A DNA stretch of 64,000 nt from an uncultured Candidatus Poseidoniales archaeon (GTDB lineage Archaea > Thermoplasmatota > Poseidoniia > Poseidoniales > Thalassarchaeaceae): positions 25,352 through 89,351 of the forward strand of contig CAZUBQ010000002.1 of NCBI GenBank assembly GCA_964618995.1, given 5' to 3'. Positions 12,398 through 62,866 of the stretch are shown piece by piece (positions within the stretch are counted from its first letter, which is position 1; the number at the start of each line of letters is the position of its first letter). The notes under the pieces were generated by a model that was not told where the DNA came from, did not search any database, and worked only from the letters and a program-made list of their open reading frames with translations. Position numbers and translations under genes: made by a program.

Positions 12398-15300
12398 TCA
12401 CTCGTCACCCTTGCCAGTGAACCAACGGGCAGCGCGTTCTAGTTCATCGGCGTTGAGGTAGTTGTTACCTTCAGAGTCAAACGCCACCGCGTATGTCAGG
12501 AATGCTTCGCGGTCGGCGATTCCGTGCTCGGTCATCGCCCGTTCGAGTACCGCTTCAGAGAAGTTCATCTTCGCCAACGCCGCCTTCCCTTCCTGCTGCT
12601 GCACCTTCCAGGCCTCCACCTGCTCATGCGTCCACCCCTTCGCCAGCAGTTGAATGTCAGTCCAGCCCTCCGAACCAGATTGTGTGGCCACATCACCCGA
12701 ATCCTGAGAAATCCCACCTCCCGGTGGAGGGGGTGGAGTCGCTCCGACGGGTATCGAGTTCGGATCGAACCCTTCAGGTGGTGCCGGGGCTTTCTCTGGC
12801 GGAGGGGCGTCGGGATCGAACCCTTCTGGTGGAGGCGGAGGAGCGCTCATGTCAGCGATGACGTCAACCGTCTGATCGTGAGTGGAACCTTCGGGTTCCA
12901 ACCGCCCGAGATTGCGATTCATCACGATGAGCACGACGATGACGATGAGTGCAACCATCAAGGAGATGTAGAGCACAATCGGGCCAATGTTATCGGTGAA
13001 CTGCTGGCTCATCGCGGCCGCGTCGCGTGCTACTGGGGGCTGGAGAATGAGCGGGTCGATAGAGATCCTATCGAGCACCACATGTCCGTCACGGACAACC
13101 AGACGGTAGCGTTCGACGGTCTCCTCCTCAACCTCATCAGTTTCGATGACAATCTCCCCGATGAAGCCTGCTTGTGGCCGCAGTGTCACCTCTGTCGATG
13201 CGTCCTCGACATCGACCCATACGCCGTTGCCTATCTTCCTCTGGAGAGCGAAGGTGAGGTTGCCCTCCTCGTCATTTGAATTGGTTCCGATGATCGTCAA
13301 CGTGACCGGGTCACCCGATTCAGGAGTAGCGTCCGACCAACTGATGTCCGTCTCAAACAGGTCTACGTCCGGGCCGACGCGAACGAGGCGCCAGGTTTCG
13401 AGCGGAGTTGCCTCAGTGTTGTTCTCTGACACATACGGATTTCCGGCAGCATCTGCACCTGTCACCCAGACATCCACCAAGTATCCCGGAAGAAGTTCAG
13501 TCACCCCACCGTCGGTGATGTCGATGGTGTCGGTCCAGTGTCCGTATCCGTACTGCTGCAACAAAGTGCGCAACTCGTAACTGCCACGTGCTACTTCCGA
13601 CTCGCCAGCACGCACGATGTAGTGCAGCACTGCCGGTCGGTTGGAATCGAAACCTGAGGCGTCGCTGGTGTTCAGGAACACCACAATCTCTCCAGCGTCA
13701 GTCAGAGGGATGTCTCCGGAGGGAAGAATGGAGTTGATTACTGGCAGAACGCCATCCACCTCGAGCAGGATGCGCGGCGGCTCAGGTGTCTGGTCAGTCG
13801 CCAGTCCAGGAAGGTTCTCCAGCCATGCGAACATGTCGAGGTGACCGCTACGCACGTTCGGGACGAGGATGTCGACGGTGAACTCCCCACCCTCGCGCGG
13901 CACTGCTCTCCATTCGAGTTCTAGGTTTCCGACGACGATGTCGAAAGCGCCTTCAGGCGCAGGTGCGTGGTCCTCGCTGAACAGGATGCGTCCGTTGACG
14001 CGGACGACCTGTCCGGCAGCGATAGTCCGTTGCTCTCCCTCCTCATTGTACAGGTTCTGGCCGGTGGCCAGATCGATGGCTGTGAAGTGACCCGGGTCGA
14101 GGTCGAAGCGGAGGTCATTGTCGAGGCTCCATTCGTCATTGCCCAACCCACCTCGTTCAGAGAAACATGGCTCCAGTGTTTCCGCGTAACAGGGCCAGTC
14201 GGATACTTCAATCACGGGAATGTAAGTGGACAAACCATCGGTATCCATCTCTTCCGGGAATTGCCATGTCAACTGGAAGCGGATGTTCAGGTCAATGATT
14301 GACTCATTGCCATCGACCAGAGTGTAATCGCTGTAGAGATTGGACACCGCTAATCCAAGACCCCCCGATTCAAGATACATGTCGAGAGTACCGTCCTCAA
14401 GTTTGGTGAAGTTGGCCCAGATTGAGCTCTCTGACTCGCTCAACTCGCCATTGAGAGAAATCTGGACATTGGAGATATCGTTCCAACCGTTACGATCGAC
14501 CACCCTCAGCCGCGCGATGTACTGCGTACCGGGATGCAGTGGTGCCTCGTCGTCGTGTCCAACGATCGTCGAGTTCTCCGATTCCAAGTATGGTTCAAAC
14601 TCCTCACGGATGTGATAGGTGACCAGGTCAGCTTCCCAATCAGGTTCCTCCTCGTTGAAGCCTACACCGCAGGGGTCAGCCTCTTCTGAACACACGGGAC
14701 CTCCACCCATCGCCAGCGCGTTACCCTGAGCATCCGCCCCCTCGATGTAGAGAGATACCTTCTCTCCATGGTGGTTCACGTTGTCCTGGATGAGCCCCTC
14801 GAAGATGTTCAAGCCGCCGGGTTGCACCTCGGGCGTGTTCAACGTCAGGTAACTGTACTCATTCCAATCGGGTATGCCATCGTAATCGAGGTCATGTTGC
14901 CCTTCGACCCAATAGCGCAGGTCGAGTTGTGTTGGCGGATCGACAGAGTCCTGCACGACGATGCGAATCGGCTGGCTGGGTGTGCCCTTGTGCACCTCAT
15001 CGCCATCAGAGGGCGTCGCGCCGATTACGAGCGGACTGTTGCCGTCGAGCACCAGTCGTACCGTGTTCCAACCCGGATTGACGAACTCTGAGTTGTTGAC
15101 GAGGCTGACCGCCTTGATGCGAAAGAGCATACCGCCCGGTGACGACTCGACCGGGCTGACAATCGTGATTGAGTACTGCCCGTGGGACGGATTCGGTTCG
15201 ATGTGGAACTGCTTCTCCGGCTCCATCGGTTCCCCATCCATTGTCAGGTTCTGGCCGGTCAGTTCCAGGCTGAACTGTCCTGCCTGTGGAGAGTAAGCCG

Positions 15301-17875
15301 TTCCATCGAAGGATATCGAACCGTGGAACGTCACCTCGAGTCCGCCACGTACCCAGTCACTTCCGGAGAGTACGCGACCGGTCTCGTCCTCGACGCCCAT
15401 ATCCATCAGTTGGATGTCGTTCTCCACTCGCATTCCAAGACTCTCAGTCTCCCAGCGGGTCACCTGCCTACCGATGTCATCGTCGACAGTGAGCAGAACC
15501 TCGATGCCGCTCTCGTCGTCCCAAGTCCAGTTCGAACGCAACGGGAGCAGCAAGGACAGGACTCCATCAGACGATTCCTGCGAGGTGCAGTTTGCAGCAT
15601 CGAAGGAGATCAGGTCGGCGTTGTCCGACACCAGCGAGCAGGCATTGCCGTTGGACCACCTGATGATGGGATTCTCCACGCCGGTCGCCTGTAACTCGAC
15701 GTCGACCTGGTTGATGCGGTCCGCCTCGTCACCCTCAGCGACCCTAGCCACCAACACACGGCTCACTCCGTCGGGGACGAGCATGCCCCCTTCGAGCGAG
15801 GCGTCGAGCGCCATCGTGGACATCTTGTAGGTTACATCCAGATTGGATACGCGTATGCGACCGGGAGAGCCTGCCATGAAGGTCAGAGTGACGTTGCTGA
15901 CTCCGACTCCGTTATCCAGAATGTTGTCGTTGAAAGCATCGACAAGGTTCTGCCCACTGAGGGTTACCGGTTGGTTGAGCAGGTCCGTGCCGACGTATTC
16001 GTAACTCCCATCATCCCCAATGTCGATTCTGACTGAACTCGGGTAGCCCTCCTCGTAGTCCAGAGTGAACGAAGATAGAGAGGGCGTAACGCTGGAGTCA
16101 GTTGACCCGAAGGTCACCCGGTAGGCCAATTGGTTCCCCTGTGAGGTGAACGTCACCATCTGATTGTTCGTCACCGTCTGCCAGTTGCTGCCGTTGTCAT
16201 TGCTCACCTCCACACCCACTGTCGTCCCCGGTGGAGTGGATTCCACCCAGGACACCTGCATCTGCCCTACCTGTGTGCTCGTCGTGACCGTGGGCGAGGT
16301 CCAACTCCCCGCTGTGTTGTAATCAGTGGAGTAGTTGAGCGACATCCACCACGATACCGAGGTCGACCCTACCATCTGCAGCTTCCAGCGCAACTGCTGG
16401 CCGGGATGAGGGAAGTGCACCGTCTGGTTGTTCACCACCTGAACCCAGTGAGTTCCGTTGTCCGCGCTCACCCAGTAATCGACTCGGTCACCCGCGGCCG
16501 TCGCCGACCAGACCGTCTCGATGTTCGCCACCAGCACGTCGCTGTTCGTGTCGATGGGCTCACTGATCCAGTTCGAAGTCCCCGGTTGGGGAGATATCGG
16601 ATAACTCCAGCCAGTGCCGAATTCCCGGTAGTAGCGATTGGTGTAGTGGTAGTGATCATGCGTCAGAAGTCGCTGGCCATCGTGGTAAATCCCGTAACCG
16701 TTGGCGGGAATGGATGCCTCTCCGGTCTGCTTTGCGAGGGTGGTAGAGGTACCGCTGACAGCGAACACCTCGATTCTGTCCTGATAGTACTGGAAGCGGC
16801 TGCGCATGAAGAACAGGTTGTCCTCGACTGCCAACCCGTGCTGTTGGTTGTAATTCGAGAAGTAAGCGTACTGCAGGCTTCCGTCTCGCTCAAACGTGCC
16901 GTCGTCGGAGAAGGAGTAGGGAAGAATGGTCCGCCTGGTGGGGTGGAGTACCCAGAAGATATCCCTGCTGCGGTCGAACGAGATGCCGGTGTAGGAGCCG
17001 AACTGCTGGCCGGAGAGATCGTAGGACTGGATGCACTCCCAGTTGTTCTCGTAGCGAATGTCAAGCACCCATAATCGGAGATACTGCGCTTGGTAGTTGT
17101 AGGCGTCAGAACCGATGATGGCGTAGAGCCGCTCATCGTCTCCGACAGTCCACCCTCGGAATCCATACTCCCCCCACTGCGACATTGTTGGGAAGGCGCA
17201 GTTACCTGACTCGATCATGACCGAGGAGTGTACCGACATGTTGTTCGGCCAGACCTTCTTCACCACCTGATTGATCTGCTTCGAGTCGAAAGTCGAGACG
17301 TAAAGCCAGTCGCGGTGCTTCATCACCGCGCCGGCATAACTGCCAATCGACGAGGTGAGCGTTCGCTGAGCTGAGAGGCGGGTCTCGGTCGAGTTCGAAG
17401 TGTGCGGCTGGCGGATGCTGAACGAACCGTTGTCATTCCAAGCACTGCCGGACGAGGCGTTGTCATCCATGCTATGCGGGACGAACTCCTTGACGGGGGA
17501 ATCCATCGCCAGCGTGAGTTCATCAGAGCGAGTCTCTACAGATGTGGCCTCACCAGATTCCCAGTCCGGTCGAGATTGATGTACGATCTGGTTCCAGCCG
17601 GTCGACGAGGCGCCGGCAATCGTCATCTCCACATCTGTGACCTCCGCCCCCCGCGGCATCGAGACTTGCACGTTGCGAGCTGGAGTCCCCATGTGGTAGA
17701 CAGCAATCGCCTCGGTGCTGCCATCCGAGAACGAGTACTGGTGGCGGGTTCCACCTCCGGCAGCACTCACGTCGTCAGCGATGAAGGATAGGGCGGGGAC
17801 TCCGATGGAGCAAAGGAACAGCAACAGCAGTGTTCCTGAGAGGAGTCGCTTGCTATGTTCCGGGTCCATGGACAA
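12398..17875 (-). CDS. giant cell-surface protein (1825 aa): Sec signal, ~1600-aa ectodomain, one C-terminal TM, Pro-rich linker and a ~90-aa cytoplasmic domain
   Basis: N-terminal signal LLLLFLCSIGVPALS. Thr/Ser/Asn/Trp-rich beta-type domains. TM IVLYISLMVALIVIVVLIVM. PPPPPEGFDP(x2) linker. Terminal domain with an EF-hand-like DSEGNNYLNADE loop. Confidence 0.8.
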   Translation of the reverse strand: MSMDPEHSKRLLSGTLLLLFLCSIGVPALSFIADDVSAAGGGTRHQYSFSDGSTEAIAVYHMGTPARNVQVSMPRGAEVTDVEMTIAGASSTGWNQIVHQSRPDWESGEATSVETRSDELTLAMDSPVKEFVPHSMDDNASSGSAWNDNGSFSIRQPHTSNSTETRLSAQRTLTSSIGSYAGAVMKHRDWLYVSTFDSKQINQVVKKVWPNNMSVHSSVMIESGNCAFPTMSQWGEYGFRGWTVGDDERLYAIIGSDAYNYQAQYLRLWVLDIRYENNWECIQSYDLSGQQFGSYTGISFDRSRDIFWVLHPTRRTILPYSFSDDGTFERDGSLQYAYFSNYNQQHGLAVEDNLFFMRSRFQYYQDRIEVFAVSGTSTTLAKQTGEASIPANGYGIYHDGQRLLTHDHYHYTNRYYREFGTGWSYPISPQPGTSNWISEPIDTNSDVLVANIETVWSATAAGDRVDYWVSADNGTHWVQVVNNQTVHFPHPGQQLRWKLQMVGSTSVSWWMSLNYSTDYNTAGSWTSPTVTTSTQVGQMQVSWVESTPPGTTVGVEVSNDNGSNWQTVTNNQMVTFTSQGNQLAYRVTFGSTDSSVTPSLSSFTLDYEEGYPSSVRIDIGDDGSYEYVGTDLLNQPVTLSGQNLVDAFNDNILDNGVGVSNVTLTFMAGSPGRIRVSNLDVTYKMSTMALDASLEGGMLVPDGVSRVLVARVAEGDEADRINQVDVELQATGVENPIIRWSNGNACSLVSDNADLISFDAANCTSQESSDGVLSLLLPLRSNWTWDDESGIEVLLTVDDDIGRQVTRWETESLGMRVENDIQLMDMGVEDETGRVLSGSDWVRGGLEVTFHGSISFDGTAYSPQAGQFSLELTGQNLTMDGEPMEPEKQFHIEPNPSHGQYSITIVSPVESSPGGMLFRIKAVSLVNNSEFVNPGWNTVRLVLDGNSPLVIGATPSDGDEVHKGTPSQPIRIVVQDSVDPPTQLDLRYWVEGQHDLDYDGIPDWNEYSYLTLNTPEVQPGGLNIFEGLIQDNVNHHGEKVSLYIEGADAQGNALAMGGGPVCSEEADPCGVGFNEEEPDWEADLVTYHIREEFEPYLESENSTIVGHDDEAPLHPGTQYIARLRVVDRNGWNDISNVQISLNGELSESESSIWANFTKLEDGTLDMYLESGGLGLAVSNLYSDYTLVDGNESIIDLNIRFQLTWQFPEEMDTDGLSTYIPVIEVSDWPCYAETLEPCFSERGGLGNDEWSLDNDLRFDLDPGHFTAIDLATGQNLYNEEGEQRTIAAGQVVRVNGRILFSEDHAPAPEGAFDIVVGNLELEWRAVPREGGEFTVDILVPNVRSGHLDMFAWLENLPGLATDQTPEPPRILLEVDGVLPVINSILPSGDIPLTDAGEIVVFLNTSDASGFDSNRPAVLHYIVRAGESEVARGSYELRTLLQQYGYGHWTDTIDITDGGVTELLPGYLVDVWVTGADAAGNPYVSENNTEATPLETWRLVRVGPDVDLFETDISWSDATPESGDPVTLTIIGTNSNDEEGNLTFALQRKIGNGVWVDVEDASTEVTLRPQAGFIGEIVIETDEVEEETVERYRLVVRDGHVVLDRISIDPLILQPPVARDAAAMSQQFTDNIGPIVLYISLMVALIVIVVLIVMNRNLGRLEPEGSTHDQTVDVIADMSAPPPPPEGFDPDAPPPEKAPAPPEGFDPNSIPVGATPPPPPGGGISQDSGDVATQSGSEGWTDIQLLAKGWTHEQVEAWKVQQQEGKAALAKMNFSEAVLERAMTEHGIADREAFLTYAVAFDSEGNNYLNADELERAARWFTGKGDE
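12690..12850 (-). repeat. coding Pro-rich direct repeat (PPEGFDP x2 within PPPPPEGFDPDAPPPEKAPAPPEGFDPNSIPVGATPPPPPGGG)
   Basis: Near-identical GGATCGAACCCTTC(A/T)GGTGG units at ~12754 and ~12805. This is the cytoplasmic linker of the 1825-aa giant. Confidence 0.6.
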
Positions 17876-18011: not shown

Positions 18012-21000
18012 TCAGCCGATGTTCGTCTTACGGTCATCCCAGCGTAGTGGAGATGGGCCGTTCCCACGGACGTTGTCGAGCATGTCGTTCTCAATCTCGA
18101 ACCAATCATTCAGCCAGTCACCATCGGAATCCCAGTTCAATGGGTTCGTCCCATCGGCTATCTGGTCACCATCCATGTCGATGCGCCACCAGCCCCACAC
18201 GTTCTCGCCGATTCCGGTGTTGGGGAAGTGGTACTGGTCACCGAACACCCTGCCGTACTCGTCGGTCCAGTCCCCCTTCACAAGGTGGATGTCATTGCCG
18301 TTGTCGATGGTCATGTAGTCCGGGTCCATGTCGTTGATGACCAGAGCATAGAGCTCATCAGTGGAATTGGTGCGATACATGCGCATGTAGTTCACCAGGT
18401 AGGAACTCGGCTGTCCCAATCCAAGCAGCGTCTCACGTAATTCCCACCATTCGCTGACCACCACGTTGATCGGTGGGCTGGTCCCAGCAATCGGTATCGG
18501 TGTCGAGCGCACCAGCGTGGGCGAGACCAACGAGGCGTTGGTGATGCCGTAGAACTCCTGGAAGTTGTTGTAGGAGGTGTAGGTACAACCGGCATTAGTG
18601 CATTCCCAATCTCCATCTAGGTCCGGATCCTCCATCGCATCGGCAGGGTCGGTAGCGTTGAACGTGTACCAGGTCCAATTCATCAATGGCCGTTCGAGCA
18701 GACCCATGCCGTTGTCGTGCAGCGGGCGCAAGACAATGCTGCCCAGCACTGTGTACTGCTCCCAGACAGTCTCGATTTGGGCGTACGATGACCAGTTGTC
18801 ATTAGATTCGTTCCAGCCCATCTTGTACTCGTACCAGTCGGGCAGCATGTCCCAGTCGGTGTCGTTGTCGAGCGCGTTGGTGCCGTACTTGAACACCTCT
18901 CGACCGTCGAGCAGCGCCCAGTCCCTCTCATAGCTGAGCGTGATGTTGTCGTCGCTCGGATCGCTGATGTGCGTGTAGGTGATGGCGTCTTCGTCGGTGT
19001 CGTTCAGGTCTGGTCGAGTGCCGTTGTCGTACTCCATCCAGTTGGTGAAGAACAGCGGAGAGTTGCCCGCTGATATCTGGTCCTCTATTCCCCCAGAGGT
19101 GAACACATGACTGCTCCATTCCCCTTGAGTTGCCACCCTGTCTCCGGAGGTGCGGTCGAACCAGCCGTCAAGATCAGGGTCGTAGTCGATGTCCAAGGGG
19201 TTCACAGGATTGGTAGCCCAGCGCCAGTCGTCGACTGGGAACACGGTCTGGTATGTCCCGTAGCAGAACTCCCATCCGTCGGGGATGCCATCGGAGTCAG
19301 AGTCGGAGTGAGTCGGGTCGGATATTCCGATGAGACTGAGATTGAAGTTGTCTGAATAAGCGGAGTTGATACGATTCATACGGTTGGAACTGGTGACATC
19401 CTTGGCCGCGAACGTTTGCACCAGTTGCGCGCGAGCATCCCCCCAAGAGAGACCCTGCTCATCCATGTAGGCGTTGATGGCGTCCTCACCGTAGTCGACG
19501 ATGCCGAATCCCGGCGGGAAGGAGTAGCGCATCGACTCCTTTCCGTAGACCCGGGCTTCATACTCGCGGAGGTTCGAGTAACGCTCGTCAGGCGCTATCT
19601 GTCCATCCTGGTTGCAGTCATACGAGTCGTCGTCACTATCGGCGAATACATCGGTGATGGTCAGCGGATTCATCGACCAACGGTTTCCGTCGAGGTCCCA
19701 TTCTGTGAACCAATACTCGTAGCCGTCGATCATGCCATCATCGTCGGTGTCATTGTTGGTCGGGTCGGTGATGCCGATCAATGTAGAGAAAAACGGTTGG
19801 GCTATGCCAGTTACTTCCCAATTCCAGTGTTGCTGTAATGCGATGAACGCTCTTCCAGATCTCCCTTCGAGCATGTCCTCGATGCGTTCGGAGAAATTCG
19901 CTGACTCGAGCACGAGCGCCTCTTCCCACATCTTGGGCGCGTCCGGTGGTGCAAGGCCACCGTTGAGGGGGTTCTCGTACGTCAGGTTCAGCTCCTGCAG
20001 GTCTGTGAGTGCGTCTTGGTCACCGTCCGCGCCTCCATCCCCAGCAACCAGAGGGTTGAGGGTCCAGTTGAGGAAAGACAGGTTCCACTCGGTGAACAGC
20101 AGTTCGATGCCATCGAGCAGGCCGTCACCGTCACTGTCTCCATTGTTCGGGTCGCAGGTCGGCCCGGACAGATTGTACTGGTCTGAGGACATGAACGCAC
20201 CGAAAGAGGGCGCGCCCACACCCTGAGCCCATGGCTGGAGTATGATCTGGTTGCCGCTCCTGAACGGGAACCATTGTGGCGAGGTCTGGTTGGCGTCGGT
20301 CTCAGACAAATTGGCTGAAATGGAGTTGTACTCCTCCCAGTTAGTCATGCCGTCGCCGTCCGGGTCGTTGAAGCGGTCGGACGAGTTCATCGGGTTGAGC
20401 ATCCACTGCGCATCGAAAGTGTCCCAGCGGGCGAACCATACCTCCCAGCCGTCAGGCATGCCATCAGTGTCGCTGTCGGCGGACAGTGGGTCCGATGCAC
20501 CCTCGTCAGTGAGGATGATTCCTGGAACATTGCTGATGGCATTGAAACCGGCACGCTCGCCGAACGGCAGCGTCGCACCGCTCGTCCAACTATCGTTCCA
20601 CAGAGAAGTGACGAAACCTGCGGGGAGCGGGGTGCCGTCATCGGTCATGTTCCCAAAGATCTGCTTGTCCTTGATGTGGTACTCCATCCAGTTGTTGAAC
20701 CACTCGTCCTCGGTCAACTCACCATCGTGATTAGCGTCGTAACCATCACCGTCGGGGTTGTTGAGGTAGTCACTGCCGTTGAGGGGGTTGATGCCTACGT
20801 TAGCCATGCTCCACACGCACGCGTAGCGAGCCTCCCATCCATCGGGAAGCGAGTCACCGTCCGAATCCGGATTGTTGGGGTCGATCTTCGTCCAGTTCTG
20901 TGCGGCCTCGGCACTCTCACCGTGGCTCGGCAGCCCGTTCGCCCGTGAATCGAGCAGAAGGAGTTCCCACTGGTATTCACAGTAGTTCGTCAGCCCATCG

Positions 21001-53151: not shown

Positions 53152-53259
53152 CTGTCACCTATGGTGAACGGTCGCCGAAAGACTCCTATAAGGATTCGGG
53201 GACAATGCCCGGCTTCGACGTGCTACGCACGTGTTTCCGCCATATACGAGGGCGTCGGT

Positions 53260-54393: not shown

Positions 54394-54468
54394 GGGCCCG
54401 TAGCTTAGTCTGGTTAGAGCGCCCGGCTCATAACCGGGTGATCATCGGTTCAAATCCGGTCGGGCCCA
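54394..54468 (+). tRNA. tRNA-Met (anticodon CAU); elongator type (G1:C72). It could alternatively be the agmatidine-modified tRNA-Ile2.
   Basis: Hand-folded cloverleaf with a 7-bp acceptor stem GGGCCCG/CGGGCCC, D arm GCTT/GAGC, anticodon stem CCCGG/CCGGG with loop CTCATAA, T arm ATCGG-TTCAAAT-CCGGT, and discriminator A. Confidence 0.85.
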
Positions 54469-54470
54469 CA

Positions 54471-55775
54471 TCACTGCTCGATCAGTTGCGCCGCGAGTTG
54501 CTCCGCTTCGGCACGAATTGATTCGGGAACGAAGTACATCGTGCTGCTGAATTCTCCGGAGATGGACTTGATCATAGCCGATGATACGAGAATATCGCTG
54601 CCGTCTTCGAGTTGTATTCCGCCGACATACGGCAGGTATCCTTCCTTGCGCATCCGTGCGTGGATGAGGTCGTGCTGCGCATCGAATCCTGCTTCTGAAA
54701 CTAACACGGACAGCGGGTCGAGCAACTTCTCCGCCTGCTCAGGGGTGTGTTCGGGAAGTCGCACCCGCTTGTGGAATCCATCGCGGCTGGCCAGACGAGT
54801 TGCATATCCTGACAGAACTGGATCTGCGAGGTCAGCCCAAGCGAACACGTCTGAGATAACGAACGCATCCGTCAGTTGGGAATAGCGCAATGGCGTGAGT
54901 TCGCGGTTCGACAGCATGTCGCGCATTCTCAAGGACAGCGGAAGGCCCTCATGTTCGTGCAGGTGCCGCGCCCGCGCTAGGGAGCGCACGTAGTACGCTT
55001 GGGTCAGCAGATTCAGTTTGTGGAAGTAAACGAGTTGGTACATGTGCCAACGAGTGACGAGGTAGCCTTCGACCACACCTACCCTGTCCTGCCTCACGAC
55101 CAAACGCCCATCATCCGAGATGCGCAGTGAGCGCAGGATTCGGTCCAGGTCGATGCTGCCCACATCCGCTCCGGTCACGAACTGGTCGCGCTTCAGGTAG
55201 TCGAGTCGATCGACATCTAACTGGCTGGAGATGATCTCGGAGAGGAAGCGGGGCTCGACGCTGCCCCCCATGATGGCGATCAGGCGGTCCACTGAATCGC
55301 CCAGCAATTCCGTCAGAACTCCTGACAAGTCGCACTCATCGTCCTGCATCAACAGGCGACCCCATTCCTCGTGCCCGCGGAAAGTGGCGAAAACCTCGGG
55401 TGTCTCGAACATGTGCGAGAAGGGGGGGTGCCCGACATCGTGCAGCAGGGCCGCGATCGGGACCAGTCGTGCATCCTCGTCAGAGATTGCATCAGGGTAC
55501 AGTTCGCGCAGACGTCCAATCAGCCGAGTCGCCAGATGATGCGCACCCAACGAATGTGAGAACCGGGTGTGGGTAGCCGAAGGGAATGCGTAGTGACTGG
55601 TGGCGAGCTGTTGGATGTAGCGCAGCCGCTGAAAGGTGCGCGTGTCGATGATGCGGCGGACTTCTTCGCTAATCTCGATGTCACCGTGCAGCGCGTCGCG
55701 GATGATGCGCCCGTCACCCATCACAGTGTCTCCAGCGTGTGCCGGGACCGGCGCGCTCGCTTCAATCCACCGCAT
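54471..55775 (-). CDS. HD-domain phosphohydrolase (dGTPase/SAMHD1-like dNTP triphosphohydrolase family); probable start at 55721 (MGDGRII)
   Basis: …RFSHSLGAHHLA… and LLHDVGHPPFSHMFE are HD motifs. ~415 aa, typical for archaeal dNTPase-like HD proteins. Confidence 0.75.
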   Translation of the reverse strand: MRWIEASAPVPAHAGDTVMGDGRIIRDALHGDIEISEEVRRIIDTRTFQRLRYIQQLATSHYAFPSATHTRFSHSLGAHHLATRLIGRLRELYPDAISDEDARLVPIAALLHDVGHPPFSHMFETPEVFATFRGHEEWGRLLMQDDECDLSGVLTELLGDSVDRLIAIMGGSVEPRFLSEIISSQLDVDRLDYLKRDQFVTGADVGSIDLDRILRSLRISDDGRLVVRQDRVGVVEGYLVTRWHMYQLVYFHKLNLLTQAYYVRSLARARHLHEHEGLPLSLRMRDMLSNRELTPLRYSQLTDAFVISDVFAWADLADPVLSGYATRLASRDGFHKRVRLPEHTPEQAEKLLDPLSVLVSEAGFDAQHDLIHARMRKEGYLPYVGGIQLEDGSDILVSSAMIKSISGEFSSTMYFVPESIRAEAEQLAAQLIEQ

Positions 55776-55813: not shown

Positions 55814-56668
55814 CTAGTCGGCCTCAATCCCCGCTCGCTGTCGCAGCCACAGCCAGGTGGGGAGATTCACGGCAGCCACCGCCAGCAACCACCCCGCGAC
55901 ACACGCGCCCGCGAGGGTGAGCATGTTCGAGGACATCGGATAGAAGGCTGCGATCAACAGTGCGTACACCGAGACGGACATGGCGCCGAGCATCATCGGA
56001 CCGATTGCTCCAGTGGGAACTGCTTCACCTTGTGAAATCCATAGTGCCACCATGCTGGTGGTGAATATCGCCGGGAAGATGCTCATCAGTCCGCTCGCCA
56101 GCGTGTCCCCCGACCCGGCGAGATGGACAGCGATTCCGATTGCCAGAGAAGCAGCCAGCCCCCGCGCCACCAAGGTACCCGGCCCCACCGGATTATCTCC
56201 GGGAGGTGCAGGAACGTGCTTCCAGCAGGTGGCCACGCCGATGCTGACTCCCAGCGCCAGCGCCAGCCAACCGATGAGCAGTGAAGAGGTGCCTCGCCCG
56301 AGCAGGAAGTCCACGCCGAGCATCGCGAGCGCCGCGCAGGCCAACCAAACAGCGAGGGTGATGAAGGTGATGGCGACCAGTCGAGTGCCCAATCCCCAGC
56401 CGGGAAGCATGTCTGGAACGATGCGCCACAACCAGAGGAAGCCGGCATTCAGCAGCAACCCGACCGGAACGATGCCCATCGCACGTTGGAACTGCTCGAC
56501 ATCGCCGGCGGTGGCTACCCATATCCCCAATCCCGCAGGAACCAATGTCGAAGGCACGGTTCCCAGAACACCGCCATGAATCCCACCCCAACGCTCGATG
56601 GCAAGGGTGACCAGCACGGCCACAATTCCAGCGAACAACGCAGAGAGTAGCAGTGAGGTGCTCGGCAT
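55814..56668 (-). CDS. hypothetical polytopic membrane protein (8-10 TM; start MPSTSLL at 56668; the track extends to 56800)
   Basis: Continuous hydrophobic helices rich in Gly/Ala/Leu. The longer track start would overlap the neighbouring protease gene. Confidence 0.5.
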   Translation of the reverse strand: MPSTSLLLSALFAGIVAVLVTLAIERWGGIHGGVLGTVPSTLVPAGLGIWVATAGDVEQFQRAMGIVPVGLLLNAGFLWLWRIVPDMLPGWGLGTRLVAITFITLAVWLACAALAMLGVDFLLGRGTSSLLIGWLALALGVSIGVATCWKHVPAPPGDNPVGPGTLVARGLAASLAIGIAVHLAGSGDTLASGLMSIFPAIFTTSMVALWISQGEAVPTGAIGPMMLGAMSVSVYALLIAAFYPMSSNMLTLAGACVAGWLLAVAAVNLPTWLWLRQRAGIEAD

Positions 56669-56699: not shown

Positions 56700-58721
56700 C
56701 TAACCGCCGGGTTCCTTGTTGTCCGATGTCTGCTCGAGTTCCGCGTCATGCGGGGCGTCATCTCCACCCATCGGCCATAGGCCGGCCTCCTGCCAACCAC
56801 CGTGCTTCTGCCTCGCGTTGGCGACCATCAGCCCGGTGATCACCACTCCGATGAGCAACAGCAGCACCAGCGCTGCGAGGAAGAACACCAGACCGGAAAG
56901 CCCACCCGCGTCATCGGTGACAGAGATTGGTTGTTCACCCATCACATGGAGGTGAACCACAGCGTTGGTCGAGGAGTTGTCGTCCTTGATAGCGCGCAGC
57001 ATGATCGTCTGGTTTCCCGTCAGGTTGTTACCCGGCAGGTAGCGCAGCCGGTCGAGCAGCATCTCATGAGTCACTTCAACCGAGGTCTCTCCCGGTTCGT
57101 AATGCGGGTGGTCGGACCAGTAGTCGCGCATGTCCCATGTGCGCCACTGGATCTTCATCGGACCACCCAGAAGTGAGAAGACGACGCCTCCACCCGGGCC
57201 GATGTGCACCTTGTTGTCTCCTCCTATCTCGCTCACCAGTGATACGTTCATCGCCAGCGTCAGGCCGTAGACCTCGTTGGCCGCCTCCATCACCGCGGGA
57301 ACCGCCTCCACCTGCCCATGGCCGTAGACGTTGTTCTGCCGATTCTTGGGGATGAGATCCTCTACACAAGGCTCGTTGGCGGCCATATAGATGCACAAGC
57401 GATAGGTCGATGTCTCCTGCATGATGTTGCGCACATCGAACGGAGAAAGGTCGGGATTCGCCTGGTACATCAGCGCCGCCACTCCGGCGGCTCCAGGGGT
57501 CGCCATGCTCGTGCCGGACATCGCGGTGTAGCCGGTTCCGGTGTTGGCCTCGACCGACATCACGCTGCTGCCGACGAAGGCGATATTCGGCTTGATGCGC
57601 CCCTCCTCGGTCGGCCCTTGACTGGAATAGATTGCGATGGCGGTGTCCTTGTCGAGCGCCCCTACGGTGACGACATCCTCCGCACTCCCTGGTGTGCCAA
57701 TCTGGAATGAGACGGCGGAGTTGCCCGCGGCGATGAACAGCGAGATGCCGTTGCGCACCATCTCGTTGGCCATCCTGTTGACGCTGTCCTCCTCGGATGC
57801 GGTGAACTCTGACAGGCCCGGACCGCCGAGGCTCATGCTCGCCGCCCGGATGTTGAACTCATGCCGGTAGTCAACCGTCCACTGCATCCCACCCATGACC
57901 TGAGCAAAAGAACCCGACCCGCTCCCGCTGAGAACCTTCACCCCCACTAACTGCGCCTGTGGTGCCACCCCGATGTGCTCGTAGGTGGGTGCACCCGTGC
58001 CTGTGGTGATGCCCGCACAATGGCTCCCGTGTCCATGGTCGTCATATGGCTCGACATCGCTGCCGTTGACCTTGTCAGGGTTGTTGATGGCGTCGTAGAA
58101 GGCGATGACCTTCGGGTCGTATGTGCTGTTGTCATCATCCAGATCATCGATTCCCGAGTGATTGCCATCGATGCCGGTGTCGATGATAGCGACTACTGAG
58201 CCCGCGCCCGTGTAGCCGGTGTCCTCCCAGACTGTGGTGACGCCGTGCACCTCATTGACATCCTCCATGGCGATGGTGAGGATGCCATCCAGTTCCACCA
58301 TGACGACTCCCGGCAGGTTGGCCAAGGTACCCAGCCTGCTCACCTCGACGGGGCCGGCGAGAGCATCGATGAGCGGGAAGCGCCATTCAGTTTCGAAATT
58401 GACGTGGTCGGCGAGCATCTTCTCGTCTGCGGCGCTCGGTTGATGGTCGAAATCAACGATGACCCCGATACGCCCCTCGTCATCCACCCAGTCGTGCAAT
58501 TCGCTGGCAATCGCTATCGGAATCGCATCGGAGATGCCGTCACGGTCGCGATCCATGTTCGTAGTCTCCCACCACGGCTCCTCTTCGACGTCCGTGGGCA
58601 GTGGTGCCACTTCTGGCGTGACCGCCGCACCTAGGCTGGGCAGGAACAGGAGAGCGAACACCGCAAGGCTCGCCCACAGCATGCGGATGCGGCGCGATAC
58701 GTCACTACGACCGTCAATCAT
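56700..58721 (-). CDS. subtilisin-like serine protease (S8) with an N-terminal Sec signal, a C-terminal TM anchor and a short cytoplasmic tail
   Basis: AIIDTGIDGNHSGIDD (Asp), DDHGHGSHCAGITTG (His) and GTSMATPGAAGVAALM (Ser) are canonical S8 motifs. Signal MLWASLAVFALLFLPSLGAAV. TM GLVFFLAALVLLLLIGVVITGLMV. Confidence 0.8.
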   Translation of the reverse strand: MIDGRSDVSRRIRMLWASLAVFALLFLPSLGAAVTPEVAPLPTDVEEEPWWETTNMDRDRDGISDAIPIAIASELHDWVDDEGRIGVIVDFDHQPSAADEKMLADHVNFETEWRFPLIDALAGPVEVSRLGTLANLPGVVMVELDGILTIAMEDVNEVHGVTTVWEDTGYTGAGSVVAIIDTGIDGNHSGIDDLDDDNSTYDPKVIAFYDAINNPDKVNGSDVEPYDDHGHGSHCAGITTGTGAPTYEHIGVAPQAQLVGVKVLSGSGSGSFAQVMGGMQWTVDYRHEFNIRAASMSLGGPGLSEFTASEEDSVNRMANEMVRNGISLFIAAGNSAVSFQIGTPGSAEDVVTVGALDKDTAIAIYSSQGPTEEGRIKPNIAFVGSSVMSVEANTGTGYTAMSGTSMATPGAAGVAALMYQANPDLSPFDVRNIMQETSTYRLCIYMAANEPCVEDLIPKNRQNNVYGHGQVEAVPAVMEAANEVYGLTLAMNVSLVSEIGGDNKVHIGPGGGVVFSLLGGPMKIQWRTWDMRDYWSDHPHYEPGETSVEVTHEMLLDRLRYLPGNNLTGNQTIMLRAIKDDNSSTNAVVHLHVMGEQPISVTDDAGGLSGLVFFLAALVLLLLIGVVITGLMVANARQKHGGWQEAGLWPMGGDDAPHDAELEQTSDNKEPGG

Positions 58722-58798: not shown

Positions 58799-59869
58799 GT
58801 GTATGTCAGCATGCGCCCGCGGACGCGAACGGCTCCGTCGTCGATGGAAACCGGTTCAGCAGTGCTCGCGCTGCTGCTGGCCCTGCTGCTGTTCCCACTG
58901 CCCACGGCCAGCGCTGCCTCCTTCCGACTGGACGAGCCAATCTACCATAGCGGTGACGAGTTCGTCTATGAAGGGTACACAGTAGAACTGCTCAACCGTC
59001 TGCGAACCACCTGGGAGAGCGACGGCGACCTGCTGAGCGTAGAGGTAACGGCCTCGGAGGAGTTGACCGTGAGTCATCTCGGTAGCGAGGGCTGCAGCAT
59101 CCTAGGCTGGTCGGGTGACTGCGACCGAGCCCGGATCAGCCACTCTGTGAACGTCACCATCACTTGGGTGGAGAACACTACCGCGTTCACCAATGACACG
59201 CTGAACATGTCCATCGTGCATACTGCTGACCACTGGAAGGCGCGCGGTACCCATCGTTACGAGAAACTCGCTGCCGTGACCAACACCGAGACCTATTTCT
59301 CGGGCGGCGGTGAGGACAATGTCCTCGAACACGAACTTCGCAAGACAACCCAAACGGAGCGAGTGGGAGACTGGCCAGATGTCGTCGAGGTGCGAAGTTC
59401 GTGGGACGTGGAGATGTCCGAGACATCGAACGTGACTGAGCGCACACGGGAGAACAAAGGTCCGTGGTCGGAAAGTTGGCGGGACGAGATGAACACGCAG
59501 CAGGTGGCCTATCGAGCACTCAACCTGACGACGGTGCACTACGGAGTGGCCAACGAGAAGTCGCATGACACCATCATCATCCGCCGCGACCATCTGGGTG
59601 ACAACCTCACCTTCCACGACCACTTCAGGGAGGAGGGGTTCCTCGCTCGCACTGAGATGTACGATGGGGAGACCCTGCTGCTCTCCACTACATTGGTGGA
59701 GTACAGTTACTACGAAACAGAGCCGCATTCGCTGACCAGCAGCTCCAATTGGATGTTGCCGACGATTTTCGTCGGGCTTGTCGTTCTGGCGATTATCGCC
59801 GCCGGTGCTGCCTTAGCTGTCGTCAGTAGCGCACCGCGGGCTCGAAATCCTGAACAAGATGAGCCATGA
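58799..59869 (+). CDS. surface protein: signal peptide, ~300-aa ectodomain and one C-terminal TM
   Basis: Signal AVLALLLALLLFPLPTASA. TM PTIFVGLVVLAIIAAGAALAVV. Tail SSAPRARNPEQDEP. Confidence 0.5.
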   Translation: MYVSMRPRTRTAPSSMETGSAVLALLLALLLFPLPTASAASFRLDEPIYHSGDEFVYEGYTVELLNRLRTTWESDGDLLSVEVTASEELTVSHLGSEGCSILGWSGDCDRARISHSVNVTITWVENTTAFTNDTLNMSIVHTADHWKARGTHRYEKLAAVTNTETYFSGGGEDNVLEHELRKTTQTERVGDWPDVVEVRSSWDVEMSETSNVTERTRENKGPWSESWRDEMNTQQVAYRALNLTTVHYGVANEKSHDTIIIRRDHLGDNLTFHDHFREEGFLARTEMYDGETLLLSTTLVEYSYYETEPHSLTSSSNWMLPTIFVGLVVLAIIAAGAALAVVSSAPRARNPEQDEP

Positions 59870-61211
59870 CCTCGCTCGCCTCGGCGGCCAGCGAAAGTGC
59901 CCGAATCCTGAGCAAGCCGCCGATGGCACTCCCCTCGAGAGTCAGCGTGTCCACGCCGACGACCTGGCTGGACAGCATGATCGCCACGACACCGTGCGTC
60001 CCCCAATCGTACTCTGTCGGCGTGTCGTCCATGGAGTTGCCAATGGGCAGCATCAGGCGCGCCGTGCCGTTGGACACGGTCGACCAAGCAAGCGTCGTAC
60101 TTCCGTGATATACGATTCCAGACGCATTCGTCACCGGCTGCCCCGCCGAATCATTGACCCAGATGGTCAGGTTGACTTCAGCGTTCAATGGCGACCAGTC
60201 GGGTTGTACCGAGACCTCGATGACCTCGGCTGGTGAAGCAGGAGAGTATCCGCTCAGAACTAGTGTCGCGTTCACTCCGCCAAGTGCGATGTCGTCTGTC
60301 CAGCGATGCGTGTACTGGCGTACGGCAGGACACCACCAGCGCCATTCCTCAGGCTCTCCAGTTCCGTCGTGCATCCACACCTCAGTGCTGTTCTCACACC
60401 CGGGCCACGGGGAATCGACCTGCCTCGCCACGGAGAAGTCCCACTCCTCGTTGCTGTGCTCAGGCCCATCCGGAACCTCAATCAATCCACTCTCCCCGCC
60501 CGAGTAGTTGCTGGAGTGGTTAATCTCCTCGTACCAGGTGTCGTTGAGTGCTAGTGGGAAATCATAGAACTCCCTAGGCGGATCAAATACCGAATCCTCA
60601 GTGAAGTCGGTGATCTCGATATCAGGGCCTTCGATAATCACCTGCGGAGTGAAGGTGAATGCCAACCGCTTGGAGTAGCCGGTCATTGCCAAATCACCGA
60701 CGCGATACCATTCAGTCAGTTCGAACACCACATTGAGCGTGCCATCCACATCGCCGATGACCGGAGCGGGAAAGTCGCGCCCCTGGCCGACGAAGTTGCC
60801 ACTGGTGAAGGTCTGGTAGACCGGAGTCAGCACTCCGTCCACCTCCTGCTCCTGAATCGCCTGCACGGTCATCACGCCGGTACCGTACAGGAAGTCAAGT
60901 TCCGCACCCTCGAGTTCGGCGGTCTCCTCGACCATCTCGATCGCATCGAGTACGACATCGAAGGTCCACTGGTCTCCGACATTCCATACCGGTATATGCG
61001 CAGTCCAGTTCCACTGCACACTCTCGTTATCGGTCGTGTTATCCTGTGTAGCATTCCCCTCATCTTCGGTGCTGAAGGAGAACTCACTCATTGAGTGATT
61101 CACATGTGAACCGAGGGGGGAGGTGAACGAGGTGACCAATAGCAGGAGAAGCGCACAGGAAACTACCTGCCGTACACCACCCATGGCATGCCGAGGAGGA
61201 GGTTCGCACAT
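59823..61211 (-). CDS. secreted/extracellular protein (track extends to 61580; probable ATG at ~61184-61211 preceding the signal peptide VVSCALLLLLVTSFTSPLGS)
   Basis: The N-terminal 120 aa of the track ORF are Arg/Ser/Pro-rich and overlap a divergent gene, so they are probably not translated. The mature part is Trp/Asn/Thr-rich and beta-type. Confidence 0.5.
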   Translation of the reverse strand: MCEPPPRHAMGGVRQVVSCALLLLLVTSFTSPLGSHVNHSMSEFSFSTEDEGNATQDNTTDNESVQWNWTAHIPVWNVGDQWTFDVVLDAIEMVEETAELEGAELDFLYGTGVMTVQAIQEQEVDGVLTPVYQTFTSGNFVGQGRDFPAPVIGDVDGTLNVVFELTEWYRVGDLAMTGYSKRLAFTFTPQVIIEGPDIEITDFTEDSVFDPPREFYDFPLALNDTWYEEINHSSNYSGGESGLIEVPDGPEHSNEEWDFSVARQVDSPWPGCENSTEVWMHDGTGEPEEWRWWCPAVRQYTHRWTDDIALGGVNATLVLSGYSPASPAEVIEVSVQPDWSPLNAEVNLTIWVNDSAGQPVTNASGIVYHGSTTLAWSTVSNGTARLMLPIGNSMDDTPTEYDWGTHGVVAIMLSSQVVGVDTLTLEGSAIGGLLRIRALSLAAEASEVMAHLVQDFEPAVRY

Positions 61212-61282
61212 GAAGCGAGCGCCGTCTTGAAGCACAAATGGTCCTCCCTGACGTTTAAGCCACCATTCGTCATAGCGCAGCC

Positions 61283-62866
61283 ATGAGCAAACTGTGGGCG
61301 ATGTTCTTCCTGAGCATCCTGCTTGTGAGTGTGATGAACTTCTACGCAGAGGTTCGAGAACCCGACCGTGTGGACATAGCCGAAATCCACGAGCACATAC
61401 GTGAGTCGGTGAAAGTGCAGGGAGTGCTGACATCGTACGTACGCGATCCGTACTCCGATGGGTCAGACCGAATCGACCTACTGCTCGAGGATGAGTACAA
61501 CGTCGTGGAGATTCGCTGGACCGAGACCGGCATGCGCCAATCTGGCCGTGATGATGGACTTCCGGTGACCCTGCCGCCAATCGGAACAGTGGTCGAGGGA
61601 GTGGGGGAAGTCGTCGAATGGAACGGTAAGATATGGATTCAATCGCAGGGCGCGGGTGCCATCACCTACGATGCCAGTTGGGTGCCCGATGTTCACGTGC
61701 TCGACCTGACAGCACTTTCGCACAGTCCGAGTAATTACGCAGGCGACCTGATCACGCTCACTGGCTACGCCGGCGGAGTCATCGAAGCGAACATCACCCG
61801 TCAGACCTTCTCGCTGATGGATTCGCCCTCGTACAGCAACGCTGACCACATCGTGTCCGTATCGATGGAAGGGCGACTCACCCAGGCGCTCGAATCAGGC
61901 AGCAAGATCACAATTACCGGATGGCTGCGCTGGGACGAACGCTCGTTCCGCTGGCAATTGCAGACCCACGCCACGCAGATCGAAGTTCTGTGGGCGGCGG
62001 GAGCGAAGCGACTCTCATGGAGCTCGGACGCAGTCTATTGGTCGTACGATGTGGGTGCGTTGGTCACTCTGGAAGGGACGAGTTCCAATCAATCGGACGG
62101 TTGGTGGATTATGGGTCCGGGAGACGCGGGCGTGAATCGACTCTGCCTGCTGCCCTCACCTACTGACCAAGACGGTATCACACAGGACTGGACCGGCCGG
62201 CTGGTGTGGGAGGAACAGAAGGTGCAACTATGCCTCGACCACGGTTACGATGCTGAGTTCACCAACCCGACAGGAGAAATCGGCGAGGGTATGGTACCTC
62301 TGGGAGATGTGGTGCGCGACCCGAATGCGTATCGCAACCAGACGCTGAACTTCGAAGGTTGGAGCACCGACCCCATCTCTCCTGACTACAACAAGGGCTA
62401 CTTCGCCGACGGGCCTGACTACTTCACCCGCTCCACGCGCGTGCGCATGGTTCTCGAGGGTGCCCGGGCTGAATGGCTGGAAGCCGACACCATGGTGCGC
62501 ATCAACGCAACAGTCGTTTGGGATACTGCAGACGCACGTCTCATCCTACAGGTACACGCAATCACGGTCGTTGGGCCAACTCCCAACCCAATCACACTCT
62601 CCTGGACCGAGGGTTTCGATGACTGGCAATGGGACATCAACAAGCGGGTCAAAATCAGCGGTATCGCAACCAACGGTTCCAACGGAACGTTGTGGATTGC
62701 TCGCGAGGGGAGCGCCATCGGTGAACGACTCTGCCTGCTCGGTGACGGAACCGAACTTACTGCGCAGACCGCGGCAGGCTCGCAACCGCTTGACTGGGTA
62801 GGCCGGTTGACCACCGAAGAGAACGTGGCCGACCGAGAAGTGAAACTCTGTCTGGACCGTCGTTGA
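61283..62866 (+). CDS. secreted protein with a signal-anchor and four internal ~120-aa repeats (OB-fold/BOF-like?) carrying a recurring (R/K)LCL(L/D) motif
   Basis: N-terminal LWAMFFLSILLVSVMNFYA. Repeats end in ...NRLCLLPSP, ...VQLCLDHG, ...ERLCLLGDG and ...VKLCLDRR. Confidence 0.5.
   Translation: MSKLWAMFFLSILLVSVMNFYAEVREPDRVDIAEIHEHIRESVKVQGVLTSYVRDPYSDGSDRIDLLLEDEYNVVEIRWTETGMRQSGRDDGLPVTLPPIGTVVEGVGEVVEWNGKIWIQSQGAGAITYDASWVPDVHVLDLTALSHSPSNYAGDLITLTGYAGGVIEANITRQTFSLMDSPSYSNADHIVSVSMEGRLTQALESGSKITITGWLRWDERSFRWQLQTHATQIEVLWAAGAKRLSWSSDAVYWSYDVGALVTLEGTSSNQSDGWWIMGPGDAGVNRLCLLPSPTDQDGITQDWTGRLVWEEQKVQLCLDHGYDAEFTNPTGEIGEGMVPLGDVVRDPNAYRNQTLNFEGWSTDPISPDYNKGYFADGPDYFTRSTRVRMVLEGARAEWLEADTMVRINATVVWDTADARLILQVHAITVVGPTPNPITLSWTEGFDDWQWDINKRVKISGIATNGSNGTLWIAREGSAIGERLCLLGDGTELTAQTAAGSQPLDWVGRLTTEENVADREVKLCLDRR

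Follow-up and report, generated by a model that had tools for sequence, protein, structure and literature searches.

In the agl clusters of Haloferax volcanii and Methanococcus, the gene encoding AglB is flanked by glycosyltransferases, a flippase and sugar-modifying genes. Here we describe a locus that likewise holds AglB in a conserved neighbourhood with envelope glycoprotein candidates, but where the neighbours of AglB are purD and a subtilase gene, no glycosyltransferase, flippase or sugar-nucleotide enzyme adjoins it, and the only family 2 glycosyltransferase (GT2) lies ~38 kb away and has been lost in one clade. The locus belongs to an uncultured Candidatus Poseidoniales archaeon (Marine Group II, MGII; family Thalassarchaeaceae). 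We analysed a stretch of 64,000 nt of its contig CAZUBQ010000002.1 (assembly GCA_964618995.1, positions 25,352 to 89,351), hereafter the window, and in it the interval 12398-62866. The MGII, as yet uncultured and with an uncharacterised cell envelope, rank among the most abundant archaea in the surface ocean.

The AglB of this locus is best compared with AglB-L of Archaeoglobus fulgidus (PDB 3waj and 7e9s), its best PDB match both by sequence and by fold. The two share the STT3 domain, the WWDYG motif, the acidic 'DPWY' motif of the first external loop (EL1) and the succession of a polytopic GT-C domain and an external domain (with a weak AglB_core match), but the present protein is about four times longer (~3200 aa), adding a ~390-aa extension and a ~2100-aa ectodomain with a second membrane anchor. 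The regulator of the locus resembles the STAND/MalT-type NTPases (Pyrococcus PH0952, PDB 6mfv; Escherichia coli MalT), with which it has in common an NTPase domain (match to PH0952, 6e-28), TPR_MalT/TPR_12 repeats, a helix-turn-helix (HTH)-like region and a gene that adjoins one having repeated upstream sites. It differs from them in that its HTH is N-terminal and weakly detected and that the protein is unusually conserved across the order. Thrombospondin genes have been reported as widespread in Poseidoniales (Rinke et al. 2019, PMC6461757); in the passages of that paper that were searched they are scattered adhesion markers and the term 'synten' was not found, and the secreted giant G2 described below is probably one of them. 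Another conserved cluster, of more than 10 genes, has been reported in the order (PMC10877094). Neither the fixed neighbourhood nor the giant AglB nor the promoter element presented here was described in the literature that our searches retrieved; as far as those searches go, what is new is an order-specific giant AglB, a conserved element at the G3 promoter and the extent of the collinearity.

A previous, sequence-only reading of this stretch had proposed a ~50-kb cell-surface island, ancient and fixed in the chromosome, which would work as a single co-regulated system. Our results strongly support the antiquity and the fixation, and they do not support the single system. We consider it probable that the interval is not a discrete island, but the central part of a backbone that is collinear over at least 55-60 kb, composed of several independent modules and not of one regulon. 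The result is an order-wide candidate set of envelope proteins (a ~3200-aa AglB, three conserved giants, two anchored subtilases and choice-of-anchor-T proteins) together with one conserved promoter element and its candidate regulator, all of which can be targeted directly by metatranscriptomics, metaproteomics or glycoproteomics, and cryo-electron tomography.

Gene content, gene order and ancestry

Open reading frames (ORFs) of the interval were extracted and scanned against Pfam and NCBIfam, and their starts were corrected using the gene calls on identical contigs, which gave 22 protein genes. Genes occupy 97% of the interval. The gene content listed in the sequence-only reading was present at the places given there: four proteins of 1466-3271 aa, two S8 subtilases, an STT3/AglB fusion, an HTH-STAND-TPR regulator and three pilin-like genes, in a run of surface genes broken only by purD, carS, a tRNA-Met, an HD hydrolase and a metallo-beta-lactamase (MBL)-fold hydrolase. 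The genes of the left and central parts are the following:

11870-12361, minus strand: h163, a small acidic cytoplasmic protein, 36 bp downstream of G1 and just outside the left border of the interval
12398-17875, minus strand: G1, a surface protein of 1825 aa with a signal peptide, an all-beta ectodomain and a transmembrane (TM) segment at ~aa 1626
18012-23759, minus strand: G2, a secreted protein of 1915 aa with ~10 TSP3-like Ca-binding motifs and no C-terminal TM segment
23979-24806, plus strand: MBL, a cytoplasmic MBL-fold hydrolase (Pfam Lactamase_B_2, 5.9e-15), divergent from G2 and heading the pilin-like genes
24859-28633, plus strand: three pilin-like genes (347, 749 and ~162 aa), consecutive ones sharing 4 bp at stop and start; the N-termini resemble class III signal peptides
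28649-31198, minus strand: the STAND regulator, with an N-terminal winged-HTH-like region, a P-loop NTPase and a TPR sensor, 31 bp downstream of G3
31230-35711, minus strand: G3, a surface protein; the ORF has 1493 aa, and the likely true start, ATG 35630, gives 1466 aa with a typical signal peptide
35631-35861, minus strand: the G3 promoter region, 231 bp between S8a and G3; no other intergenic region of the window is both long and AT-rich (64% here)
35862-37163, minus strand: S8a, a subtilase of 433 aa (Pfam Peptidase_S8, 1.8e-42, 146 bits, cutoff 21.8), 57 bp downstream of AglB
37221-47036, minus strand: G4, the giant AglB/STT3; the ORF has 3271 aa, and the protein probably 3245 aa from 46958, as called in identical contigs and relatives
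47131-48399, minus strand: purD, phosphoribosylamine-glycine ligase (GARS_N/A/C domains)
48443-49144, minus strand: carS, CDP-archaeol synthase (Pfam CarS-like, 7e-28), adjoining purD order-wide

In a species-representative genome set, the best 80 relatives of purD were all Candidatus Poseidoniales/MGII records. The closest, from Poseidoniales metagenome-assembled genomes (MAGs), were 87-92% identical, and an identical protein was found in marine metagenome contigs. The organism is thus a marine MGII archaeon, and not one to be compared with related halophiles, as had been suggested.

For the right half, gene order was compared by searching 86 purD-anchored loci with every window protein (tblastn); for the left half, MBL, STAND orthologues and G1 orthologues served as anchors. 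Note that a metagenome scan with MBL gave only 5 loci, among them the informative L090. From the DUF5591 gene (1.7 kb) to the HD gene (55.8 kb), which is nearly all of the window, the order recurs in both families, Poseidoniaceae and Thalassarchaeaceae, as three overlapping pieces, the central join being seen only in Thalassarchaeaceae-like lineages. On the right, HD, the choice-of-anchor-T gene(s), h387, sec611, carS, purD and the giant AglB are found in this order in every purD locus having the DNA, and these loci span records named Thalassarchaeaceae (purD ~64-71% identity) and Poseidoniaceae (57-61%). The giant AglB comes directly after purD in 80/80 loci with more than ~600 bp of downstream DNA, and S8a comes after AglB in the ~15 purD-anchored loci whose DNA extends that far. 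In the centre, the order AglB, S8a, G3, STAND, (pilins), MBL, G2 recurs in seven loci (L090, L092, L093, L094/L095, L100 and L105), one clade member being named Thalassarchaeaceae. S8a follows AglB in 7/7 of these, and the position of MBL, between G2 and the pilin/STAND genes, is conserved. On the left, the full order DUF5591, sec768, DnaJ, TM305, GT2, RNA-binding protein, C15-NUDIX, h163, G1, G2, MBL, pilins recurs in L096 (a Thalassarchaeaceae MAG), L097, L098 and L099, the G1 homologue of L099 being named Poseidoniaceae by NCBI. Finally, the tRNA-Met stands beside HD in 13/13 relatives scanned (in L040, which has no HD, beside the relocated sec527), with a varying strand.

Some rearrangement was observed at the right-hand end. 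In Poseidoniaceae-named and other lower-identity loci, carS is inverted and sec527 is relocated beside HD. The pair S8b-TM328 lies beside HD only in some Thalassarchaeaceae-like loci. The paralogues sec315 and sec346 find separate matches only in the wider clade of the window and in L066; in most relatives both queries match one gene.

With synteny in both families and the tRNA-Met fixed in place, the claim of an ancient, vertically inherited and chromosomally fixed region is strongly supported by these comparisons. Conversely, a horizontally acquired or mobile island, assembled piecemeal, is effectively refuted. A tRNA gene does lie inside the region, GC is slightly lower over the giants (0.55-0.58, in a window of ~58-60%), and some relatives lack the pilin trio, G1 and GT2, as might be seen with such an island. 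But the scans of window proteins against Pfam and NCBIfam revealed no transposase or integrase among the interval genes, no flanking repeats were found at the interval, and codon usage is native, as had been proposed: relative synonymous codon usage (RSCU) of the four giants correlates with that of housekeeping genes at 0.89-0.94, and GC at third codon positions (GC3) is 0.63-0.77 throughout. The tRNA-Met, sole match of the Rfam scan, is kept in place order-wide, and the region is collinear across an order whose two families are dated to have split ~1.1 billion years ago (PMC10877094). Where G1, GT2 and the pilins are missing they have been lost secondarily, in one clade, given that both families have them at the same positions.

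This last point deserves a closer description. One large clade (L090, L093, L094/L095, L100, L105) lacks GT2 (8090-9232), G1 (12398-17875) and the pilin trio (24859-28633), that is, three separate positions in an otherwise collinear region. Its STAND proteins are 71-78% identical among the loci read, and only 59-63% identical to those of the window clade. With the full arrangement present in both families, the absence is derived, a loss in this one clade as delimited by its STAND proteins. Lineage-specific insertion of G1, GT2 and the pilin trio, suggested by L090, L093 and L094, was rejected in view of 178 order-wide homologues of G1 and of the same positions in L096-L099, including the Poseidoniaceae-named locus. 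The joint absence may mean that the three work together; one clade counts as one observation.

The enrichment of the proposed 'island' in surface genes is confirmed. Membrane or secreted status was assigned by our own hydropathy and N-terminal signal-peptide/TM heuristic, with no trained predictor. By this heuristic, 18 of the 22 protein genes of the interval, accounting for 88% of its coding bases, encode membrane or secreted proteins; the flanks, taken as ~32 kb of the same 116.9-kb scaffold, have 7 of 25 (Fisher one-sided p=2.6e-4; the genes are not fully independent, given the tandem paralogues and the pilin operon). The borders of the interval are arbitrary and soft, because the housekeeping flanks (DUF5591, DnaJ, C15-NUDIX) are equally collinear, and the whole belongs to the core chromosome. 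To the left lie a secreted 768-aa protein (sec768), a TM protein and GT2; immediately to the right lie TctA and a secreted 1625-aa LTD/PLDc giant, and the flanks also carry exported proteins of 682 and 761 aa.

These same flanks bear on another explanation, namely that the clustering is functionally meaningless: in a group rich in large exported proteins and slow to rearrange, an ancestral accident would have been kept by inertia. Exported giants outside the interval (the 768-aa protein to the left, the 1625-aa, 682-aa and 761-aa proteins in the flanks), flanks as collinear as the interval and the other long conserved cluster published for the order (PMC10877094) would all be expected from it. 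We nevertheless find it improbable: 18/22 versus 7/25 is hard to obtain by chance (p=2.6e-4), short gaps and conserved pairings, such as those of AglB-S8a, G3-STAND, G1-h163 and the overlapping pilin genes, suggest links at the operon level, and the architecture of the G3 promoter is conserved.

The giant AglB and its possible substrates

The giant AglB (G4) consists of a ~390-aa polytopic N-terminal extension, an STT3 TM domain, the WWDYG motif, a ~2100-aa beta-rich ectodomain and a C-terminal TM segment. Pfam STT3 (PF02516) matches with 59.7 bits (cutoff 24.5). The catalytic WWDYG motif, at residue 1047, lies in the external domain, and a consensus of 16 family members shows conservation of the columns on either side of it; the acidic motif of the first loop, of the divalent-cation-binding kind, reads 'GGSDPWYM' (~aa 436-443), its D, P, W and Y being invariant in alignment A2. 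Since the match to A. fulgidus AglB (1.6e-10) starts only near residue 392, the first ~390 residues, with 9-10 predicted helices, form an extra module. A word-indexed homologue search with the N-terminal 1300 aa gave only 12 matches, and hence an exhaustive search of cluster representatives was performed with the N-terminal 420 aa. It retrieved 32 of 1.84 billion representatives, and all complete ones are 3146-3228 aa long, so by this search the extension is specific to the giant AglB family. The AlphaFold2 model of residues 1-1174 was weak (mean predicted local distance difference test, pLDDT, 57.8); Foldseek still retrieved AglB/STT3/PglB with it, and was uninformative on the extension. The ectodomain carries CarboxypepD_reg and a choice-of-anchor-T-like domain (1.1e-8). 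We also observed other STT3 fusions (P0130-P0132) of ~2200 aa, 28-31% identical to the AglB core and carrying SdrD_B, SpaA and CarboxypepD_reg domains; giant AglB fusions are therefore present in at least one other lineage.

This is not a classical agl cluster, because the score of G4 against TIGR04154 (archaeosortase-A-associated AglB) is 178.9 bits, under the cutoff of 450, and no glycosyltransferase or flippase adjoins the gene. No sortase-like enzyme adjoins it either, and no archaeosortase was seen in the window. The envelope theme that had been read into the vicinity of carS and GT2 is weak: the housekeeping flanks are equally syntenic, and there is no glycosyltransferase beside AglB.

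S8a, the subtilase encoded just after AglB, has a ~66-aa cytoplasmic N-terminus followed by a signal-anchor TM segment. The Asp/His/Ser triad motifs are complete in both S8a and S8b (DTG, HGT/HGSH, GTS). That a protease matures the giants, as had been proposed, is a circumstantial case whose one argument is the conserved adjacency of AglB and S8a.

N-X-S/T sequons are in excess in the exported proteins, with 204 against 95 expected by composition (z=12), compared with 15 against 11 in the cytoplasmic ones (z=1.3). The excess is seen in G2 (41 against 16 expected, z=7.5), in the ectodomain of G4 itself (59 against 20, z=10), in h585 (z=7.3) and in sec356 (z=2.7). It is also seen in sec768. These counts fit N-glycosylation of some neighbours by AglB and equally fit an action throughout the genome, because sec768 lies outside the interval. 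The case for the proposal that the oligosaccharyltransferase glycosylates the giants is circumstantial, G1 and G3 having no such excess.

A bolder interpretation would make the giant AglB an envelope scaffold or 'ruler', coupling N-glycosylation to the assembly of G1, G2 and G3 and to subtilase processing, with the gene order under selection as a 'supercluster'. It is based on a protein anchored at both ends, with a ~2100-aa ectodomain and a lineage-specific N-terminal module of 9-10 helices, and we regard it as speculative and rather doubtful. If it is true, the archaea that are most abundant in the plankton of the surface ocean would have a cell surface of a type new among archaea.

The G3 promoter and the question of a single switch

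G3 carries Big_7/Ig-like domains (Pfam Big_7, 7.6e-9), weak NCBIfam matches to an acidic disulfide repeat and Ca_tandemer, a TM segment at ~aa 1385 (ORF numbering) and a Pro/Ala/Gln-rich cytoplasmic tail. Its orthologues, 42-56% identical and at the same position in relatives, also have Beta_helix. STAND lies directly downstream of G3 in every locus covering the pair. Its Pfam matches are TPR_12 (96 bits), TPR_MalT and AAA_16 (30.1 bits, just under the cutoff of 32.6), the match to PH0952 (PDB 6mfv, TPR sensor) spans aa 178-498, and HTH_Crp_2 is weak (E=0.001, 19.4 bits, cutoff 27), some orthologues being labelled PadR-type by JGI. Among the matches listed, STAND orthologues are 59-95% identical and 821-863 aa long.

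The sequence-only reading had pointed to the STAND factor together with TGTATCAAT sites as the switch of the whole region. The sites themselves proved to be a real, conserved element of the G3 promoter, with only 4 copies in the window (0.17 expected), all of them at 35704-35784 in one intergenic region. In support of this restriction, the TGATAC core occurs in 1 of 32 intergenic regions, that of the G3 promoter. Six TGATA[CT] sites are seen on the G3 strand, grouped into three pairs of 19-nt spacing, and the four exact TGTATCAAT copies are on the plus strand; the repeats stand as TTGATACA pairs with 19-nt spacing. The paired sites lie upstream of a TTATAT box, which is ~45 nt before the ATG of G3. 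Archaeal activators usually bind just upstream of the TATA-like box.

TTGATAC pairs with a spacing of 19-20 nt were found upstream of G3 in 6 of 7 lineages, being degenerate in L100. The promoter of L092 has the same spacing as the window (19/34/19), that of L093 has one pair 19 nt apart, and those of L090, L094 and L105 have one inverted pair (19-20 nt) followed by a CGAGCC-N3-GGCTCG hairpin. Judged from this conservation, the TTGATAC pairs are a real cis-element serving G3, and possibly also the STAND gene. As a side observation, the CGAGCC-N3-GGCTCG repeat (L090 17780-17815, L094 ~5680-5700, L105 5640-5656) lies between the GTATCA pair and the TATA-like box and is followed by a conserved 'CCCTATGATTAAATC'; the window keeps only a half-site, at ~35665-35685.

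The remainder of the interval gave no sign of a common switch. Counting strand changes alone, there are at least 10 transcription units, and no 8-mer is common to 4 or more of the 22 upstream regions. Because the motif is confined to G3, the units are at least 10 and no word is shared, a single switch for the 50 kb is not supported. The wider proposal, in which the whole ~50 kb is one co-regulated envelope-remodelling system where S8 proteases mature the giants, the oligosaccharyltransferase glycosylates or scaffolds them and STAND switches it on, must therefore be judged unlikely. It can claim the significant enrichment in exported-protein genes, the AglB-S8a and G3-STAND adjacencies kept order-wide or clade-wide, the sequon excess in several members, and the clade that lost the pilin trio, G1 and GT2 together from three positions, which hints at functional coupling. 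Yet the TGTATCAAT/TTGATAC motif is in one promoter only, the units share no upstream word, no glycosyltransferase, flippase or sortase-like enzyme stands beside AglB, the co-loss is a single observation, and the housekeeping flanks are as syntenic as the interval, so that conservation of order is not special to surface genes.

The explanation that we prefer is a segment inherited vertically since before the Poseidoniaceae/Thalassarchaeaceae split, in which many conserved large envelope proteins stand beside a ~3200-aa AglB and housekeeping genes (purD, carS, tRNA-Met and the dNTPase-like HD gene). Five modules can be proposed. The first would be the same-strand run carS-purD-AglB-S8a. Here AglB, whose WWDYG motif is present, would N-glycosylate the sequon-rich exported proteins G2, h585, sec356 and its own ectodomain, and S8a, the conserved downstream partner, may have a processing role. 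The second would be G3-STAND with its own AT-rich promoter, where the TTGATAC repeats may be an activator site and the winged-HTH-STAND-TPR protein encoded 31 bp downstream is the simplest candidate to bind them. The third would comprise G2-G1-h163, that is, a secreted giant with TSP3 repeats, a TM-anchored beta-sandwich giant and a small cytoplasmic protein; the fourth, MBL with the three pilin-like genes; and the fifth, the anchored proteins, choice-of-anchor-T ones included, which are probably expressed from individual promoters. Most likely, the encoded proteins build or decorate the MGII cell envelope.

Several points weigh against this backbone of modules. The membrane and secreted calls behind the enrichment are heuristic, and synteny was compared for this region and its flanks only. 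The centre (STAND-G3-S8a) was seen only in Thalassarchaeaceae-like lineages and not in loci assignable to Poseidoniaceae, and the pilin-STAND join was not seen in the Poseidoniaceae loci covered. The transcription units and their independent regulation are inferred from strand, gaps and motifs only, and the binder of the TTGATAC repeats is a candidate. G1 and G3 show no sequon excess over the composition-based expectation; taken with the excess in sec768, the counts suggest that AglB acts genome-wide and not on this locus specifically. Lastly, the enrichment in exported proteins, which a purely inherited backbone does not explain, could reflect selection for clustering.

Surface giants, pilin-like genes and right-hand genes

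G1 has no Pfam, NCBIfam or PDB sequence match, and PDB sequence searches with G1, G2 and G3 gave nothing useful. Its conservation is nevertheless strong, many Trp, Gly and Asp residues being invariant; the 120 homologues listed, out of 178, are 1753-1883 aa long and come from across Poseidoniales. The AlphaFold2 model of aa 1-1150 (pLDDT 82.6) consists of beta-sandwich arrays with generic Foldseek matches (mastigoneme, alpha-2-macroglobulin, contactin). Its ~175-aa tail is Pro-rich and cytoplasmic, with a double GWT..Q motif. This tail (12398-12930) ends 'EGWTDIQLL..KGWTHEQVEAW', and the tail of the LTD/PLDc giant (L101 13438-18315) has the same doubled motif, 'FEGWTPKQVQEALASGWTIEQLREHY', perhaps a cytoplasmic docking module common to surface giants. 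The G3 tail carries 'YPGWQWDAASNQW'. A counterpart of h163 (140-177 aa) follows G1, or G2 where G1 is absent, after short gaps in all relatives examined. G2 has weak CglD/MtsD TSP3 matches, and its orthologues, 45-97% identical, keep the same position.

The MBL orthologues of L092-L100 have precomputed PF23023 matches (Anti-Pycsar Apyc1-like cyclic-nucleotide phosphodiesterase fold). The pilin-like proteins match DUF7289 (18 bits) and DUF7266 (19.6 bits) under the cutoffs of 27-27.6, and the same weak matches are found in orthologues. The STAND 'group C' clade has no such trio, and the Pfam and NCBIfam scans revealed no pilus assembly ATPase, PilC/FlaJ-like platform or prepilin peptidase among window genes.

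To the right of carS, the interval holds the following genes:

49212-50933, plus strand: sec611, a type I membrane protein of 573 aa with an acidic cytoplasmic tail and no family match
50934-52097, minus strand: h387, 387 aa, with an acidic N-terminus and a signal-anchor TM segment; position kept in most relatives
52204-54300, minus strand: sec315 and sec346, tandem paralogues, choice-of-anchor T surface proteins with differing C-terminal anchors
54394-54469, plus strand: tRNA-Met (CAT), from the Rfam scan
54471-55775, minus strand: HD protein, dNTP-triphosphohydrolase-like (Pfam HD, HD_assoc_2; weak dGTPase matches)
55814-56668, minus strand: TM328, 284 aa, with 8 TM segments and no family match; between HD and S8b in some Thalassarchaeaceae-like loci
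56700-58721, minus strand: S8b, a subtilase of 673 aa (Pfam Peptidase_S8, 1e-49, 170 bits, cutoff 21.8) with a signal peptide and a C-terminal TM anchor
58799-62866, mixed strands: sec356 (plus), h585 (minus) and sec527 (plus), secreted or anchored, no family match

The position of sec611 is kept order-wide (21-47% identity in other species, 89-99% in close relatives), and the likely start of h585 is 61184, giving 453 aa. TM328 was considered as an archaeosortase-like enzyme and dropped, having no family match. The paralogues sec315 and sec346 belong to choice-of-anchor T; both score above the NF041740 cutoff of 70 (1e-83, 280.5 bits, and 4.8e-44, 150.4 bits). Their tails differ, one being PGF/Heimdall-CTERM-like ('PGM...RRR' plus 19 residues) and the other a TM segment with a poly-Asp tail, and no sortase-like enzyme was found near them. 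The C-terminus of sec315 (52204-52300), 'IPGMTMLALGAAVLHRRR', resembles the PGF-CTERM/Heimdall-CTERM signal (weak NF045529 match, E=0.02), with 19 residues after it. Extreme poly-acidic cytoplasmic tails end sec346 (53260-53360), '...DDFDFDDDDLDFDDDEYDDLDLDDLDLDDF', and sec611 (50860-50933), '...EEPDDIELVELDDELEELDDDD'.

Finally, in the left flank, the fusion of C15 (pyroglutamyl-peptidase) and NUDIX (9764-11437) is kept across the order, its ORF being over-extended here at the N-terminus. Two small genes of the plus strand (10917-11480 and 11505-11867) occupy the over-extended stretch and match genes of 186/187 and 120/129 aa in the identical scaffold and in one relative.

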